Source: a virus
Taxonomy: Duplodnaviria; Heunggongvirae; Uroviricota; Caudoviricetes
DNA: 45,246 bases
Reading direction: 5' to 3' (one strand)
IMG/VR virus record: IMGVR_UViG_2778261297_000003
Shown here: piece after piece, positions 25,312 through 33,878 of the stretch
Layout: every line of letters starts with the position of its first letter
How positions within the stretch are numbered: position 1 is the first letter of the stretch
Program-made: the position numbers and the translations under genes
Notes under the pieces: model-generated
The model's database searches: none
The model's input: only the letters and a program-made list of their open reading frames with translations
What the model was told of the DNA's origin: nothing

Positions 25312-26364
25312 TTATTCCCCTGTTAACGCCCTTATTTCCCCCACCGTCTGGCTAAACCTGTCCTTCTCGAGTTCAACGCCGATAGCCTGGCGGCCAAGTT
25401 CCAGCGCGATTTTCACGGTCGAACCGGACCCCATAAAGAAATCAGCCACCACATCACCAGGCTTACTGCTGGCGTTGATGATCTGCCGCAACATGTCAGC
25501 GGGTTTTTCGCATGGGTGTTTACCTGGGTAAAACTGAACGGGTTTATGTGTCCAGACGTCGGTATAAGGAACGGATACGGAAACAGAGAAATGCCGCCGA
25601 AGCGATTTGTACTCTTCGAGCAGCTCTGAATACTTGCGATTTAACGAATGCCACATAGCCACCAGCTGGTGGTGTGGTGTTGCCAGTTCGCCGTTCTGGT
25701 GCTTTTCGATGGCTACCTGCGTGAAAAGGGACTGAAGCTTCCGGTAGTCTGATTCATTCGGTAATTGCCACTGGCTACCGCTGAACCAGTGAGACACCAT
25801 GTTCTTCTTTCCAGTCGCATCGGCTATTTGTTTTGAGGTTATGCCAAGCGCTTCACGTGCATCCCGGAAATAAGAAATTAGGGGAGTCATTACATGCTGC
25901 TTCAGCTCGCTTCCCTTCTCAGCGTACCCGTCGCTCTTTGGTTTATACGGCCCCTGGTAATGCTCAGCGAACAGGATGCGCTCTGTTGCAGGGAAGTAAG
26001 AGCGCAGGCTCTCTTTATTACAGCCATTCCAGCGGCCCGACGGTTTAGCCCAGATGATGTGGTTCAGGACGTTGAACCGCTCACGCATCATGATCTCAAT
26101 GTCTGCCGCCAGACGGTGACCTGAGAAAAGATAAAGACTGCCGGCAGGTTTAAGCACTCGCCAGAATTGTGCGAGGCACATATCAAGCCAGCGAAGATAA
26201 TCCTCATCCCCTTTCCATTGATTGTCCCAGCCGTTGGGTTTCACTTTGAAGTACGGCGGATCCGTGACTATCAGGTCAATGAAGTTATCAGGGAGAGTTG
26301 CGATGTATTGCAGGCTATCAGCGTTGACTAACTCAACACTGTTTATATTTACAGTATTTTTCAT
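25312..26364 (-). CDS. DNA methyltransferase, beta-class (N6-adenine or N4-cytosine; DPPY motif)
   Basis: 350 aa; motif IV VTDPPY near the N-terminus and motif I FFMGSGST near the C-terminus. Confidence 0.8.
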   Translation of the reverse strand: MKNTVNINSVELVNADSLQYIATLPDNFIDLIVTDPPYFKVKPNGWDNQWKGDEDYLRWLDMCLAQFWRVLKPAGSLYLFSGHRLAADIEIMMRERFNVLNHIIWAKPSGRWNGCNKESLRSYFPATERILFAEHYQGPYKPKSDGYAEKGSELKQHVMTPLISYFRDAREALGITSKQIADATGKKNMVSHWFSGSQWQLPNESDYRKLQSLFTQVAIEKHQNGELATPHHQLVAMWHSLNRKYSELLEEYKSLRRHFSVSVSVPYTDVWTHKPVQFYPGKHPCEKPADMLRQIINASSKPGDVVADFFMGSGSTVKIALELGRQAIGVELEKDRFSQTVGEIRALTGE

Positions 26365-26582: not shown

Positions 26583-27482
26583 TTACGCGTTTCCAGGAGG
26601 GACATGCCAGACTCTTCGGCCATCCTCATGGTTCTCGATAATCTTGGCTGCTGTACTGCCACCAAAAGTGTGCATATAGCTATGATGTATCGTTAACACA
26701 ATATCTTGTAATGCCTGATCTGCTTCCATCGGTATGATTTTCAAACCAATTTGGCTAGCTTTATCACTGTGAATATGACGTGCATGAGCAAAAGTTGAAC
26801 TGTGGTTATTCAGGCTTGAACAAATAGCTTCAGCCTTTTGCTGGGCATCTGGATCCCCATCAAACATACCAGTAATTAGCCATTCACTGACAATTGTTGT
26901 TGCCCATTGGATTGCCTTTTCACACTCACCAATGAACGTCGGATTGAGTTTAGACAGTGTAAATTGCCAATACGCAGCAGTCGCAGGGTTTTTAATAATA
27001 TCTTGCATAGCCTTCTGCGCTTCTTCAATCACGCCATGTGCTGGCACGCCACCGATTTGGGGATCGAAAGGACCGATATTTGATTGTTTCCCCATGATGA
27101 TTTCTTTTGCACAACAAGCCAACATAGTCCCTGCTGACATAGATATCATGGGGACAAAAGCACGGATATCGTTACCGAACTTAGCTCTCAAGTAATAACC
27201 TATCGATTCTAAGGCGGCGATATCCCCACCAGGTGTATGCAAAATGAGATCAAGCCCCTTCGTGGCATCGAGCCCATGAACCGCTGTCATGAATCCATTT
27301 TTATCATCATCAGACATAGTGCATAAATGCGAGCTATTCTGAAGGAACCCCGAGTAGTACGCAATGACGTTACGTCCGGTCATCTGCGACATCTCTTTGA
27401 TATATTTGCTTCTTACTGTGTCTAGGGGGCTTTTTTGGGCGAGGACTGCAACCTCGCCCATAACATGATTCCAATTAGGCAT
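26583..27482 (-). CDS. Clp/crotonase-fold serine protease (S49/SDH-like), accessory
   Basis: 299 aa; ..LILHTPGGDIAALESIGYYL.. and ..ISMSAGTMLACCAKEIIMG.. resemble ClpP/SppA-fold serine peptidases; family assignment from memory. Confidence 0.55.
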   Translation of the reverse strand: MPNWNHVMGEVAVLAQKSPLDTVRSKYIKEMSQMTGRNVIAYYSGFLQNSSHLCTMSDDDKNGFMTAVHGLDATKGLDLILHTPGGDIAALESIGYYLRAKFGNDIRAFVPMISMSAGTMLACCAKEIIMGKQSNIGPFDPQIGGVPAHGVIEEAQKAMQDIIKNPATAAYWQFTLSKLNPTFIGECEKAIQWATTIVSEWLITGMFDGDPDAQQKAEAICSSLNNHSSTFAHARHIHSDKASQIGLKIIPMEADQALQDIVLTIHHSYMHTFGGSTAAKIIENHEDGRRVWHVPPGNA

Positions 27483-28848: not shown

Positions 28849-29910
28849 TTACGCTTTTGTTATTACGCCGATCGCCAGCGCTCGATTCATAAATCGGAAT
28901 AGCAGCTCCAGCTGGGTACCGTGTTTTTTCTCGAACGCTGCAACATCAGCATGTAATTTGTCGTGACACTCTCTGCACAGAGGGATCACGAACAAATCGT
29001 GGGCTTTAGTGGCGGTACCGCCCATGCCGTGACCAATGACATGGTGTGGATCATCCGCTGGCCGCCGGCAACCTTCACAGGGCTGGGTTTTAGCCCACCG
29101 GGTATAGTCCTCATTCACCCACCTGCGGTGTTTTGGGCGCAACATGAATGATTCAGGGGATTCAGGATCCGCATGCAGAGCCAGAACCTGTGGCTGGTCA
29201 TAGGCCACTTCCTGATTTGTTCCATGCTTTAAATGCGCAGCCGTGACCGCAGGGGTGACCTTCTTCTGCAAAATGTTTTTTGTCGGTGGCATCGGCACAA
29301 TGTCACTTTCGCGATATACGGATAAAAACGGCTCATCCGGTAAGCGAAGCGCATGCTGGGCCATCCTTTCCGTGATTGCATCAGCAATGCCTGAGTAAAC
29401 GGCCCACCAGCACAATTCACCGAGGGATAGTTCACGCTCGTTGTTGTAGCCAAGCGAAGACAGGATAGAACTGATCAGCCAGTTAATGAGATTACGCCGG
29501 GCCAGTTCTGCCAGCGCCGCGGTGGTTTGCTCGCGCAGCTGGTTATCGCAATGCCAACAGAGCAACATTGATCCAGGGGGATGTCGCATCGTTACCAGCT
29601 CATGATGGTGATAATTAGTGTGCGGGTACTGGCATTCCTTCACGTTACGCTCTAGCCAGGATTCCAACCCGGACAAACCGCCTGCTGCACGGATAACTCT
29701 CTCGTCGGTGAAGAATTCCTCGAGGGACTTATCTTCTGCCAGCGGCTGCCGGGCATCAGGGACGAGCCCCGACGGAAGCCCAGCCATGCTTTTTGGCTGA
29801 GGCTCCACCAGCACACGCCCCTGTTGAAACAAAGACATCAGTTCGCTACCCGGCTTTAACAGCACAAGCCCAAGGCGCGGAACAGTCTCGGCTGTAAACA
29901 GTCCTCTCAC
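28849..29910 (-). CDS. DUF968-family protein with C-terminal HNH-like Cys/His motif
   Basis: 353 aa; C-terminus ..CEGCRRPADDPHHVIGHGMGG...CRECHDKLH resembles HNH/zinc-binding nuclease motifs; typical nin-region gene. Confidence 0.6.
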   Translation of the reverse strand: MRGLFTAETVPRLGLVLLKPGSELMSLFQQGRVLVEPQPKSMAGLPSGLVPDARQPLAEDKSLEEFFTDERVIRAAGGLSGLESWLERNVKECQYPHTNYHHHELVTMRHPPGSMLLCWHCDNQLREQTTAALAELARRNLINWLISSILSSLGYNNERELSLGELCWWAVYSGIADAITERMAQHALRLPDEPFLSVYRESDIVPMPPTKNILQKKVTPAVTAAHLKHGTNQEVAYDQPQVLALHADPESPESFMLRPKHRRWVNEDYTRWAKTQPCEGCRRPADDPHHVIGHGMGGTATKAHDLFVIPLCRECHDKLHADVAAFEKKHGTQLELLFRFMNRALAIGVITKA

Positions 29911-30599
29911 GCGGCATGCCCCTTAGCGATGTGTGCCGTCCACAGGCCGCCGATCCACTCGATGCCTTTGGGTGTAAAACGTGCCTGGCTAAAGGCGTAG
30001 TTTGTTTCGCTCGTAGTGCCAGTTTTCACTTCAAACCGCCCGGCAGCAATGTGCTGGTGCCGAGGTGTCAGCACTCCACTGAGCCGGTACAAAATGCCGC
30101 TCTCAATGAGGAACAAGCGGAAATCGGTCTCTTTGGCCTGCAACAGCTTTGCCACCTGGCGGAAAGACATTGAGCCTTTGGCAGTACAATATCGATCGAC
30201 AAACTCAACTTTCGGCGCGGCAGCGGCTAACTGCTGGCTGAGTTGTTCTTTCTGCTCGGCCAGATCCGCGGCGAGACGTAATGCCTCCGGCAATGTTTGC
30301 GGGACACTTACGGCCTGGCTGTTCTCCAGCTCTTGCCAGCGATCGACAACAGCGGCGGTAAATTCTGGCGACAGCCTGGCGACGATCACCAGAGAATCAC
30401 GTTTGTTAAACCAATACTCCTCGTAGGTTTGCCCGTTTTGCGGGTGTGTGTAGGGGGTGTGCGCCAACGGCGCGGTTAAAATACCAGCAGATGCAAGGCG
30501 CTCAGCTGAGCGCTTCACATCACCATGTTTGCTCTGCACCAGCCTGGCAATTTCACGGCTGGACATTGTCACAACACCCTTAGCGGTTAACTGATTCAT
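29907..30599 (-). CDS. antirepressor (Rha N-terminal domain plus KilAC-like C-terminal domain)
   Basis: MNQLTAKGVVTMSSREIARLVQSKHGDVKRSAERL resembles Rha; C-terminal half resembles antirepressor KilAC domains. Confidence 0.7.
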   Translation of the reverse strand: MNQLTAKGVVTMSSREIARLVQSKHGDVKRSAERLASAGILTAPLAHTPYTHPQNGQTYEEYWFNKRDSLVIVARLSPEFTAAVVDRWQELENSQAVSVPQTLPEALRLAADLAEQKEQLSQQLAAAAPKVEFVDRYCTAKGSMSFRQVAKLLQAKETDFRLFLIESGILYRLSGVLTPRHQHIAAGRFEVKTGTTSETNYAFSQARFTPKGIEWIGGLWTAHIAKGHAA

Positions 30600-30613
30600 G
30601 CTATTTCTCCATA

Positions 30614-32551
30614 TCAGGCGGCTGCACCCGCCTTTTGATTTGCACATAATTCAGGAAGATTTGCTTCTACCAGCGCACGAGCGAACGGCGGCGGTACTGC
30701 GTTACCACAGCGCGCTACCTGCTTGTCTTTGGCGTAACGATTGCCGCGATAGTCCTGATCGATAACGTAGCCGTCAGGGAAGCCCTGCGCCTTATAAAGC
30801 TCATGCGGTTGCAGCATGCGCATTCCGATATCGACGATCTGGTACTTAACCCCCTCGATCGTCACCAGCCATTCATCCTCGCTATCACCGCAGTAGGTTT
30901 CGAGGAATGTCCGGACCTCGCCAACGTGCTGGCCACCAGCGGTAATCGTCGGCATAGGTGTATCCATGGTCTGACCGTCGCTGCAGGTTCCGCGCAGCTT
31001 CACCAGGTGCGACGCAACTACCGCGTGGTGATCAACAGTAGTGACTGAGTGGGCAGGCTCATCCATACCAACACCCGGCCCCGTGTAATTCCCACCATAG
31101 TGCTTCGCCAGGAACGCGCTCACCGTTGCAAACTTATTACCACCAGCAGTGACCGTGCCGAGCGGGTTATTCAGTTGAAGAACACGCGGTTCTTGCCCTG
31201 GGCGTTCGCCGTACCCCATCTGGATCAGTGTTGGAGTTACCAGCTGCGACTTACCGCCACCACCTGCAGTAATCGTCGCACTCGGTTCGTCAGCCCTGTG
31301 CCCAACACTGGCTCCAAACTGGCGGGCGATGACCGGCGCAACCACGCACGCGCGGGACTGCTTGAGGATTGTATGAGCGGGTTTATCCAGCGGGCGCGGC
31401 TTTGCCTGGTACTCACTGCCGCCATTGCCAGCCAGGAACGGTGTCAGGGCGGCCTCAACTACGCCAAGCGCATGCCCATTCCCGCCCGGGCGCGCCGACG
31501 TACCAGCGGTGACAGTTGGTACCGGCTCGGTCACTGGCTGCCCGGTGGCCCCGGTGCGGAATTTAGTAAGATGCGGTACCGCCAGTGCGTAGCCATGCTT
31601 TTTAGTGATGGTCTGCAATGGCTCTAACAACGATTGCCCGCGGAAACAGTCATAACCTCCTTTCGTCGTGGTGTGGTTACACTTCACGATGAAAGGTGAT
31701 GCGCTTTCGATAACAAAGCGCTGGATGCCGCGCGCGATACGTTTGAGCGTATTTTCCGCCAGCGGCTTTTTGCGGTCGAAGATGGACCGGGCCGGGATAT
31801 TCCAGTCAATGCACTCCGCCGCGGTACGCCATGGCGCCAGCTTGCCGCTTTGTACTTCCAGTGATTTTGGATCCCCATGAGTCGCTTCAGGCCAATGAAT
31901 CTTGCGGCCGTCACAGCGCATGACCATGAAGAAACGCTTTCTGATCGTCGGCGCGCCGTAGTCACATGCGCGCAGCTCCCGATAATCAACCTCATAACCA
32001 AGCCCGGCGATCAGCTGTTGCGCCTGCTGGCCGTGCGGCTCAATGGCAAGGAATTCACAAACCTCAGCCAGCGCAGGGTGATTCGCCGCGATCCCCGTCG
32101 ACAGCATGCCGACAAATGCCTCGAATGTTTCGCCAGCACGCTCAGGATCTGGGCGTAATTCTTCATCCAGCAGCGGGCCCCATGTCTTAAACTCTTCGAC
32201 GTTCTCCAGCATCATGACGCGGGGACGTACTGCCAGCGCCCAGCGCAGGACAATCCACGCCAGCCCGCGAATCTCTTTCTTAACCGGCTTAGCGCCCTTC
32301 GCCTTGGAAAAGTGGCGGCAGTCAGGGCTAAACCAGGCCAGACCGACAGGTTTACCGCTGGTGGCTGCGCTTGGGTCAACGTCAAACACCGACTCGCAAT
32401 AATGCAGCGTGTCAGGGTGATTCGTCTTATGCATCGCAATAGCGTTTTCGTCGTGGTTGATAGCGATATCCACGCTACGCCCGATCGCCAGTTCAATGCC
32501 GGTACTCGCGCCGCCGCCACCAGCAAAGTTATCAACGATAATTTCACGCAT
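30614..32551 (-). CDS. DNA (cytosine-5)-methyltransferase, large, with repeated TRD-like modules
   Basis: About 645 aa from MREIIVDNFAGGGGAS (motif I); SPDC..FS.AKG (motif IV-like), MLENV (motif VI), RKRFFMV (motif VIII), CGNAV (motif X); four TxTAGG-containing repeats between motifs VIII and X. Confidence 0.8.
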   Translation of the reverse strand: MREIIVDNFAGGGGASTGIELAIGRSVDIAINHDENAIAMHKTNHPDTLHYCESVFDVDPSAATSGKPVGLAWFSPDCRHFSKAKGAKPVKKEIRGLAWIVLRWALAVRPRVMMLENVEEFKTWGPLLDEELRPDPERAGETFEAFVGMLSTGIAANHPALAEVCEFLAIEPHGQQAQQLIAGLGYEVDYRELRACDYGAPTIRKRFFMVMRCDGRKIHWPEATHGDPKSLEVQSGKLAPWRTAAECIDWNIPARSIFDRKKPLAENTLKRIARGIQRFVIESASPFIVKCNHTTTKGGYDCFRGQSLLEPLQTITKKHGYALAVPHLTKFRTGATGQPVTEPVPTVTAGTSARPGGNGHALGVVEAALTPFLAGNGGSEYQAKPRPLDKPAHTILKQSRACVVAPVIARQFGASVGHRADEPSATITAGGGGKSQLVTPTLIQMGYGERPGQEPRVLQLNNPLGTVTAGGNKFATVSAFLAKHYGGNYTGPGVGMDEPAHSVTTVDHHAVVASHLVKLRGTCSDGQTMDTPMPTITAGGQHVGEVRTFLETYCGDSEDEWLVTIEGVKYQIVDIGMRMLQPHELYKAQGFPDGYVIDQDYRGNRYAKDKQVARCGNAVPPPFARALVEANLPELCANQKAGAAA

Positions 32552-33878
32552 TGACGGCCCCCTGCATGCTGTTGAAGAGACCACCAGCGGTCGTGATAAT
32601 TTCACTCGTCGGCATACGTTCGAGCCACAGCTGGTTGATATTGGCTTTCAGCTTGTTCTGCTGCGAAACAGGTAGAGCGTCAGCCCCTTCAATCTGGTTA
32701 AACACCAGTCCAACCTCAAGAGGCCAAACGCGCGATTCGTTTAACGCCTTGTCCTTTGATTCCTGCGTCTCACGGACATGGGCGCGGATCCCCCGAATAT
32801 TTGACCATTTGGCTTTATCCAGGCTTTCCATGGTCGCGATGAATTCACTGTGGTTAATGCCGTATTCTTTCGCAGACTCAACGGCAACCGTGCGTAACCG
32901 CTCTGACATGTCTTGTTTCACGTCATCGCTATCAAAGGGCAATGTTTCCAGCCATGCATTAACACCCACCAGGATGCTCTCGCTGATCAGCTTTTTCGCT
33001 CTGTCGATCGTCAGCGGTGAAACATTGGTAAATTCAGGGTTTTCCAGAGAGTCGGCAGCCCAGGTATGACCAAACTTTGACTCGCTGAAGGTGTACTCGT
33101 CTTTCTTGCCGAACGCCGCGACAACACAGGCCCAAGCCTCTACACCGCTGGTTTCCAGAATGGCTTTTTGGGTTAATGGCAGTTCTGCCTCTGATTTCTC
33201 CGGCACTACCTCAGCGTCCAGCTCCGGCGCCGCATCAGTTTGCGTTCTTCCCACGGCAAATTGGGCCAGCGACATCGCAGCACGGCCTTTGGCCTCCAGG
33301 TCGGTGCGGTTGATGTAACTGAAACGCTCACCCCGCCATGTTTTGTCGAAGACCACGATAGCGCCAGCAAAAAATGCGCTGGTGGGCTGCTGCTTTTCGT
33401 CTTTCGGCACGAACCATGTAGGAAGATCGAAACCAATTCGGCCACGGATGAATGTGACGTGATCTGCCTCTTCCGGCCACCACGTCTCACTCGTCGCAGA
33501 CTTAATGAGAAAAACGTACCGTCCACCCTTTTCTCGCATTGCCATAGCGTGGTTAATGATGTGGGTCATTCCGGTAACGGCCTGCTTGTCGTGGTACTGA
33601 GAGCGGCTGTAAGGCGGGTTGCCAAACCCGGCACCACCGAGTTCTGCCAGACGCTCTGACCAATCCTGCGTCAGGGCATTATTTTCAGCCGTGTACCAGG
33701 TTGGGCACTTCGCGTTGCTGTCGTCGGCAAAAAGGTCCAACACCAGAGGGCCGAACATCGCATTGATACCCCAAAACAACAGATCCGGAGTGCGCCATTG
33801 ATCGCCGACCTCTTTCAACTCATGGGCTGGTTTTGAACGCAGTTCAGCCAGCGCGCGGCAGTATTTGCTTTCAATCAT
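32544..33878 (-). CDS. phage Dam-type N6-adenine methyltransferase (NPPY) fused to a 270-aa C-terminal domain of unknown function
   Basis: N-terminal region WRTPDLLF...GFGNPPYS matches phage Dam family; C-terminal extension has no recognised motifs. Confidence 0.7.
   Translation of the reverse strand: MIESKYCRALAELRSKPAHELKEVGDQWRTPDLLFWGINAMFGPLVLDLFADDSNAKCPTWYTAENNALTQDWSERLAELGGAGFGNPPYSRSQYHDKQAVTGMTHIINHAMAMREKGGRYVFLIKSATSETWWPEEADHVTFIRGRIGFDLPTWFVPKDEKQQPTSAFFAGAIVVFDKTWRGERFSYINRTDLEAKGRAAMSLAQFAVGRTQTDAAPELDAEVVPEKSEAELPLTQKAILETSGVEAWACVVAAFGKKDEYTFSESKFGHTWAADSLENPEFTNVSPLTIDRAKKLISESILVGVNAWLETLPFDSDDVKQDMSERLRTVAVESAKEYGINHSEFIATMESLDKAKWSNIRGIRAHVRETQESKDKALNESRVWPLEVGLVFNQIEGADALPVSQQNKLKANINQLWLERMPTSEIITTAGGLFNSMQGAVNA

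Follow-up and report, generated by a model that had tools for sequence, protein, structure and literature searches.

The window analysed here is a stretch of 45,246 nucleotides (nt) of tailed-phage DNA (Caudoviricetes; IMG/VR record IMGVR_UViG_2778261297_000003), in which a gene on the minus strand, at 30614–32551, encodes a C5-cytosine DNA methyltransferase (MTase). The enzyme, referred to below as the query MTase, has a single catalytic core and, in its variable region, a tandem array of seven short units. Closely related alleles gain and lose these units one at a time, and in the family at large the units are assembled combinatorially. We suggest, holding the proposal to be about evenly poised, that the units are stacked modules resembling target-recognition domains (TRDs), which would make the enzyme multispecific and give it a function in anti-restriction.

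Catalytic core and seven-unit array

The gene product was identified by its match to the Pfam C5 cytosine DNA methylase family [PF00145, 73.9 bits against a cutoff of 22, E = 2e-20], which passes the family threshold and bears out the designation given in the first-pass annotation; the match is broken into three stretches by a long insert. PHROG 116 [1e-105] and PHROG 23072 [1e-130], both described as "DNA methyltransferase," also match. The NCBIfam model TIGR00675 (dcm) scored 53.2 bits, below its cutoff of 100.65, because it does not span the 370-amino acid (aa) variable region. The complete set of C5 MTase motifs I, IV, VI, VIII, IX and X is present in canonical order (Table 1), motifs IV and VIII being variants. 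In this family motif IV reads S-P-D-C-x-H-F-S, the residue ahead of the catalytic Cys being Asp instead of the Pro found in most C5 MTases; in an alignment of 138 homologues P76 and C78 never vary, and at least 90% keep D77. Motif VIII reads T-I-R-K-R, as against the QxRxR-like pattern.

An AlphaFold2 model of the query, built on the 138-sequence alignment, has a confident catalytic domain which in Foldseek comparison with the PDB matches solved C5 MTases, the aligned part being the core only. The closest solved structure is 3g7u, a putative MTase from Escherichia coli prophage CP-933R [phmmer E = 6e-7; Foldseek E = 8.8e-12], of 376 aa in the sequence file and 348 in the solved chain. Unlike the query it has a canonical PPCQ motif IV and no unit array, and the two proteins align only in the catalytic core.

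The open reading frame (ORF), which includes the stop codon, specifies 645 aa from its ATG. An identical coding sequence (CDS), on the 100%-identical chromosome of E. coli EC09, is labelled "DNA cytosine methyltransferase" in RefSeq with the same start. The ATG at 32551 is preferred over an unlikely alternative GTG at 32605 (54 nt upstream, adding 18 aa) because the CDS then overlaps the end of the Dam-family gene upstream, stop codon included, by 8 nt (ATGCGTGA), and because this ATG is preceded by a Shine-Dalgarno-like GGGGG run and is the start annotated in EC09. The query carries an insert of 31 aa between motifs VI and VIII which the relative P0134 lacks, and some close relatives have another insert of ~20 aa just upstream of it (columns 130–154 of alignment A1).

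Motif VIII is separated from motif IX by ~370 aa and from motif X by ~405 aa, so that the earlier estimate of a variable region of about 400 aa was a fair one. Its first part (aa 211–307) is non-repetitive, and the predicted local distance difference test score (pLDDT) there is ~87–98 up to aa 280, declining afterwards to 77 and 52. The array follows. The string T.TAG occurs at aa 346, 426, 466 and 535, four times against a chance expectation of 0.032 and a maximum of two in 20,000 shuffles of the protein; the broader pattern P..[TS][IV][TL] occurs seven times (aa 311, 343, 391, 423, 463, 499 and 532, spaced 32–48 aa apart) against an expectation of 0.077 and again a maximum of two. All four of the TxTAGG-centred repeats quoted in the first-pass annotation are there, but that count was too low: the degenerate copies LQTITKK, AHTILKQ and AHSVTTV lie beyond them, and there are seven units.

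The seven segments, of 32–47 aa each, can be aligned as a single repeat. Every unit (u1 to u7) is composed of a head, [DE]xPxxT[IV]T(AGG), a hydrophobic beta strand (h.alV.a.L) and a Gly-rich, polar tail which differs from type to type. The TxTAGG head is the generic part of the unit, and the type-specific information lies in the tail past the beta strand. In a leave-one-out (LOO) hidden Markov model (HMM) comparison with 500 shuffles for each unit, five of the seven exceeded every shuffle, while u2 was near the shuffle maximum and u3 was weak. A search of the gene for tandem repeats at the DNA level gave nothing relevant, which makes the units ancient, diverged copies and not the product of recent duplication. 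Apart from C5 MTases, the region has no match among Pfam, NCBIfam or PDB families, so that these searches assign the repeats to no non-TRD domain; a phmmer search of the repeat region against the PDB sequences aligned motifs IX–X only.

Gain, loss and permutation of units

Relatives 78–99% identical to the query fall into length classes of ~605, 609, 626, 645, 660, 680 and 690–695 aa, and in their alignment the differences appear as clean indels of single-unit length, giving alleles with 6, 7 and 8 units. One class (609–610 aa) is missing 35 aa made up of the u2 tail and the u3 head, another (605–629 aa) is missing 39 aa made up of the u4 tail and the u5 head, and a third has gained ~35 aa after u6. 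With the unit types denoted by letters, the architectures of 121 close relatives are ABCDExFG (44), ABCDEFG (27, the query included), ABCEFG (25), ACDEFG (5) and rarer forms. In the query's clade the TL head of the H unit is absent and the H strand is kept (WLVTIEG...); the TL motif from which these heads take their name is considered below.

The breakpoints of the indels lie within the strand in mid-unit, and the piece removed is therefore the tail of unit n together with the TL head of unit n+1. This register matches the order of the recognition loops in M.HhaI, where loop 1 precedes the TL loop, and the M.HhaI string GKGGQGERIYSTRGIAITLSAYGGG is similar in layout to the u4–u5 junction of the query, QMGYGERPGQEPRVLQLNNPLGTVTAGGNK.

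When 1.84 billion representative proteins were searched exhaustively with HMMER, 8,631 clusters matched at E ≤ 1e-3, of which 2,591 reached E ≤ 1e-30, and 349 phage records encode relatives of the query MTase. Units were typed with the unit HMM in the best 150 representatives plus the query, and the statements on types that follow refer to this sample. The number of units per protein ranges from 1 to 12 and is most often 6–7. The same types, which are defined mainly by their tails (Table 1), reappear in proteins sharing 50% identity or less, and almost every representative has an architecture of its own. Any one type is present in only 14–50% of the proteins and nearly always as a single copy: E was found in 49 proteins, F in 34, B in 22 and C in 21, all without a duplicate, and D in 55 with three. 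Same-type duplicates numbered 12, against 64.5 ± 6.3 after shuffling of the labels, every one of 2,000 shuffles giving more than 40.

The C-terminal order F-G-H is fixed, and A-B and D-E tend to adjoin. A, C, D and E change places relative to one another, with A before E in 5 of 12 cases, C before D in 1 of 5 and C before E in 5 of 10; by eye, D precedes C in P0129 and precedes A-B in P0144. The natural alleles thus differ by exact single-unit indels and the family architectures are combinatorial, and each module may carry a specificity of its own.

Members of ~1000 aa were considered as possible fusions with an adenine MTase, and this was rejected in favour of inteins. P0131, P0191, P0197, P0208, P0217 and P0222 (~940–1110 aa) carry an intein with a Hint domain, joined in several of them by a LAGLIDADG homing endonuclease; it starts at ~aa 78–98, by its coordinates near motif IV and the catalytic cysteine. 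Arrays of this kind are encoded by isolated phages as well (Table 1), and in phages Presto and vB_PstS-pAN the array gene comes immediately after a gene for an HD-type phosphohydrolase.

Table 1. Features of the query MTase, neighbouring genes, and unit types and array genes of the family. Positions are those of the window unless a locus is named.
Feature	Position	Strand	Residues (aa)	Basis or remark
C5-cytosine DNA MTase, CDS	30614..32551	-	645 in all	ORF list, PF00145, PHROG, EC09 annotation
Motif I, FAGGGG, S-adenosylmethionine binding	32510..32527	-	9-14	almost invariant in 138 homologues
Motif IV, S-P-D-C-R-H-F-S, catalytic Cys78	32306..32329	-	75-82	aligns to GGPPCQGFS of 3g7u
Motif VI, LENV (ENV at 116)	32198..32209	-	115-118	motif scan, homologue alignment
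Insert between motifs VI and VIII, MLSTGIAANHPALAEVCEFLAIEPHGQQAQQ	32015-32107	-	149-179	
Motif VIII, PTIRKRFFMV (TIRKRFF at 202)	31922..31951	-	201-210	aligns to PTIRTRYFFI of 3g7u
Non-repeat first part of variable region	31631..31921	-	211-307	family-conserved; S256, R271 invariant
Unit 1, type A, LLEPLQTITKKHGYALAVPHLTKFRTGATGQPVT	31529..31630	-	308-341	LOO 15.6, shuffle maximum 7.6; type A tail KFRTGATG
Unit 2, type B, first TxTAG, EPVPTVTAGTSARPGGNGHALGVVEAALTPFLAGNGGSEYQAKPRPL	31388..31528	-	342-388	LOO 8.7, maximum 9.7, borderline; type B tail RPGG..LG
Unit 3, type C, DKPAHTILKQSRACVVAPVIARQFGASVGHRA	31292..31387	-	389-420	LOO 3.9, weakest unit; type C tail RQFGxSxG
Unit 4, type D, second TxTAG, DEPSATITAGGGGKSQLVTPTLIQMGYGERPGQEPRVLQL	31172..31291	-	421-460	LOO 9.0, maximum 3.7; type D tail GYGERxGQxPR
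Unit 5, type E, third TxTAG, NNPLGTVTAGGNKFATVSAFLAKHYGGNYTGPGVGM	31064..31171	-	461-496	LOO 15.5, maximum 4.9; type E tail KHYGGNxTG
Unit 6, type F, DEPAHSVTTVDHHAVVASHLVKLRGTCSDGQTM	30965..31063	-	497-529	LOO 14.1, maximum 5.8; type F tail KLRGT
Unit 7, type G, fourth TxTAG, DTPMPTITAGGQHVGEVRTFLETYCGDSEDEWLVTI	30857..30964	-	530-565	LOO 11.7, maximum 7.6; type G tail EVRxFLxKYYG
Unit type H (family)				EPlHTvTtkDRfGLVT, terminal unit just before motif IX
Motif IX, MRMLQPHELYKAQGFP (RMLQPHELYKAQGFP at 578)	30776..30823	-	577-592	motif scan, 3g7u alignment
Motif X, CGNAVPPPF (GNAV at 616)	30683..30709	-	615-623	motif scan, 3g7u alignment
Dam-family N6-adenine MTase	32544..33878	-	444 in all	PF05869 E=3.4e-43, TIGR01712 202 bits
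Ant/KilAC-Rha antirepressor and DUF968 protein genes	28849-29910 and 29907-30647	-		directly downstream of the query MTase
SDH/ClpP-like serine protease gene	26583-27482	-		PF01972; between Q and the PF01555 MTase gene
Third MTase (N6/N4)	25312-26364	-	350 in all	PF01555; between Q and lysis genes
Pseudomonas phage Presto gp78	L006 2423-4576		717 in all	8 units
Pseudomonas stutzeri phage vB_PstS-pAN gp31	L008 2450-4042		530 in all	5 units
Mycobacterium phage Dori gp72	L007 1492-2994		500 in all	2 units

Proposed stacked recognition domains and competing explanations

The only conserved element of the TRD is the TL motif, (YFW)X(RK)X5P(STCA)PT(ILV)(TASV)X5-16H(PFYWL), which is located 10–50 aa before motif IX; residues flanking it touch DNA in M.HhaI and M.HaeIII, and the 5' part of the target is read by residues on its N-terminal side (PMC2413257, which quotes Vilkaitis et al. 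2000 and the Trautner group for the motif). Its core, P-x-x-T-[ILV]-[TASV], is exact in five of the seven query heads and nearly so in the other two, u3 ending in L and u6 having S for T. In u7, T535 lies 43 aa before R578 of motif IX, and no other TL motif of the query is at the canonical distance. The remaining six TL-like motifs are 76–264 aa upstream of motif IX, and six of the units are therefore supernumerary. M.HhaI and M.HaeIII share the catalytic fold of the query and have a TRD with a TL motif and flanking recognition loops, but they possess one such motif in a variable region of ~100 aa whereas the query has seven in ~370 aa.

A multispecific phage C5 MTase with stacked TRDs is a known kind of enzyme. 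M.SPRI, M.Rho11sI, M.H2I, M.Phi3TI and M.SPBetaI of temperate Bacillus phages are, like the query, phage-borne orphan C5 MTases with one catalytic core, and in both groups the region between motifs VIII and IX is enlarged and holds tandem TL elements (3–4 in SPR, rho11s and H2; seven in the query) in modules which have been gained, lost and recombined between relatives. The literature describes three TRDs and three targets for M.SPRI, and the SPR sequence that we retrieved has the TL motifs LSPTITT, VSHTLSA and EPAFTVNT. A 2025 review presents these enzymes as single-enzyme protection against many restriction-modification systems and cites Bacillus phages as the sole examples. The array of TRD-like repeats which the first-pass annotation saw in the query resembles them in its location in the variable region, in the TL core and in the layout of one core with an enlarged region bearing at least two tandem TL units; similarity in sequence is confined to short local matches. 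The best BLASTP segment between the query and SPR pairs EPAHSVTTVDHHAVVASHLVKLR of u6 with SPR 354–376, the last TL element of SPR [pairwise E = 0.009], and in P0144 the terminal unit and motif IX are colinear with SPR 354–391 [40% identity, E = 4e-4].

On these comparisons the query family is a clade separate from the Bacillus enzymes. Compared with the Bacillus TRDs its units are shorter (32–47 aa) and much more regular, they align with one another, and there are more of them, as many as 12 in some members; its motif IV is SPDC, unlike that of the Bacillus enzymes, and its hosts are Proteobacteria and Actinobacteria. Multispecificity has been demonstrated for the Bacillus enzymes and is proposed for the query family. 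No paper dealing with the family or with its repeats turned up in the literature searched; relative to that literature, the query clade, the short regular unit, the array length (as many as 12 units) and the family's size are new.

We favour multispecificity because the supernumerary TL heads are conserved, the type-specific tails do not repeat within a protein, the architectures are of a mix-and-match kind, and single-unit indels occur naturally. The query would then be an orphan phage enzyme whose one catalytic core is served by a target-recognising array of seven small modules, each consisting of a TL-type loop ([DE]xPxxT[IV]T, in many cases continuing into AGG), one beta strand, and a type-specific tail in which Arg, Gln, Lys, Tyr and Gly abound. 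The strands might form an open-ended sheet displaying the loops, and each pair of loops, that is, the tail of unit n and the TL head of unit n+1 in the M.HhaI-loop register, would act as an alternative TRD. By docking in turn at the single active site these alternative TRDs could direct the methylation of several short sequences. Given the delayed-early location of the gene and its coupling to a Dam-family gene, one would assume expression after induction or infection, when methylation would shield progeny DNA from several host restriction systems. Some units may be inactive relics, so that the targets may number well under seven.

A number of results weigh against this proposal. Over aa 298–560 the AlphaFold2 pLDDT is 27–65 and no fold can be read for the array. 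The minimal relative P0134 was predicted with a template modelling score (pTM) of 0.82 and with long strands formed by the unit cores, only the strands being moderately confident; its low confidence elsewhere and the poor model of the query array mean that no three-dimensional arrangement of the array can be offered. The full TL consensus, with its upstream (YFW)x(RK) and downstream H(PFYWL), is matched by none of the seven units. It is also unmatched in SPR, rho11s, H2, Dcm, M.HhaI and M.HaeIII, and since these controls fail too the strict pattern is a poor discriminator. The diagnostic trimers N-TL and C-TL correspond to none of the published classes (SRN/GRQ, ERN, QGE/RHG and QG(NQ)/HHG), and therefore no target can be predicted. 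Comparison of the seven units with the Bacillus TRDs by hhalign aligned six columns, and the unit HMM gave 5.5 bits or less on SPR, rho11s and H2, nothing on Dcm and near nothing on M.HhaI and M.HaeIII; beyond the TL core the repeat is therefore family-specific. Short and regular as they are, the units have the look of a structural repeat. Nearly all members possess types G/Y and H, in one copy and always at the C-terminal end, with any F ahead of G and H, which is how a scaffold would behave. Methylation data for members of the family were not found in the literature searched.

Several of these results would be expected if the array were one large TRD with a single specificity, the u7 loop alone serving the active site and the other units being diverged structural repeats of an open-ended beta-sheet. 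The extra units might then widen the DNA footprint, add backbone contacts or processivity, or bind proteins, and there would be one methylated motif, possibly long or degenerate. The regular spacing, the common hydrophobic strand pattern, the long strands of P0134 (which could make one sheet), the fixed order of G/Y and H with F always ahead of them, the canonical distance of u7 alone and the weak sequence similarity to proven TRDs all agree with it. We hold it to be the main rival and a serious one, but less likely than stacked TRDs, since the P..T.T head is strongly conserved in every unit, even far from motif IX, a conservation for which a single working TL loop gives no easy reason. Whole units are gained and lost between closely related alleles, and the permuted order and patchy presence of the types are atypical for one cooperatively folded domain; the loss of the H-unit TL head from the query's clade makes the heads appear interchangeable. 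That the regularity of the units and the fixed order of G/Y and H also fit a scaffold, and that diverged repeats of one domain would also give single-copy types, is part of why we credit stacked TRDs with an even chance and no better.

The loops might also be loose enough to allow jointly 2–3-nt contexts, or most cytosines, making the query a relaxed or nearly non-specific cytosine counterpart of M.EcoGII, the non-specific adenine MTase of similar E. coli prophages. Non-specific phage MTases which are silent in lysogens do exist, the loops are predicted to be flexible, and the same prophage has, beside its lysis genes, a 350-aa PF01555 MTase in the M.EcoGII size class. M.EcoGII and M.EcoGI are functional analogues in that they give lambdoid prophages a broad, protective methylation that is silent in the lysogen, but they are N6-adenine enzymes of the beta-class amino-MTases, with another fold arrangement and no repeat array. 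Relaxed specificity seems improbable to us, since type-specific tails kept across distant relatives without repetition within a protein point to distinct, specific roles, and no non-specific C5 MTase was found in the literature searched. Still less credible, to the point of being very nearly dismissed, is that the divergent core does not simply write 5-methylcytosine and instead transfers another group (carboxymethyl, as in phage CmoX) or uses another substrate, the repeats handling it. The family-wide S-P-D-C in place of P-P-C-Q, and the appearance of the C5-carboxymethyltransferase 8yf3 among the top structural matches, speak for such chemistry. The score of 8yf3 is, however, no better than those of ordinary DNA C5 MTases, motifs I, VI, VIII, IX and X are canonical, and no hypermodification genes adjoin the MTase gene.

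Prophage setting and significance

The window is a lambdoid prophage with an integrase, cI/cro, replication genes, MTases, Ant, DUF968, Q, lysis genes, terminase and structural genes. The query MTase gene is one of those in the delayed-early region that separates the replication genes from Q. Although only 13 of 5,426 complete E. coli genomes have a close DNA match, members of the protein cluster abound in Enterobacteriaceae.

The 8-nt overlap implies that the Dam-family and C5 MTases are translationally coupled. The match of the former to Dam is confined to its first ~200 aa and is followed by a C-terminal extension of ~240 aa without an assigned function. The DUF968 protein has a weak HNH-like match; the Ant and DUF968 ORFs overlap each other, and the longest Ant ORF overlaps the stop codon of the query MTase, an arrangement which suggests that Ant, DUF968 and the two MTases belong to one operon. 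The PF01555 MTase has the size and prophage setting of M.EcoGI and M.EcoGII (349 aa, PMC5778455) and is 81–97% identical to holin-adjacent MTases in phages cdtI, SfV (orf48), mEp460 and Eeyore. The nearby PF01972 protease gene lies in a patch with a GC content of 0.42–0.46, against ~0.55 around it, and is probably a moron.

We would extend the proposal to the whole group, tentatively and short of calling the extension probable: the query may stand for a phage-borne family of great size (2,591 or more clusters at 50% identity and E < 1e-30), made up of combinatorial "TRD-cassette" C5 MTases, in which some ten or more types of module, 1–12 to an enzyme, are set on an open-ended beta-sheet and each module has its own DNA target, as a widespread anti-restriction strategy. 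Multispecific methylation would then be widespread in phages of Proteobacteria and Actinobacteria, beyond the Bacillus SPbeta group, and the module types would constitute a readable and engineerable recognition code.

In the literature searched, multispecific cytosine MTases are cited only from Bacillus phages. If the query array works likewise, phages infecting enterobacteria, pseudomonads, vibrios and actinobacteria would commonly protect many targets with a single enzyme, which would help to explain how many temperate phages cross restriction barriers. Natural alleles which differ by one unit are a ready-made deletion series for mapping units to sequences, and units as small as these might provide a compact, swappable recognition code for the engineering of C5 MTases. 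Such enzymes might find use in the pre-methylation of DNA before transformation of restrictive strains, and they would confound 5-methylcytosine methylome and nanopore analyses after prophage induction.

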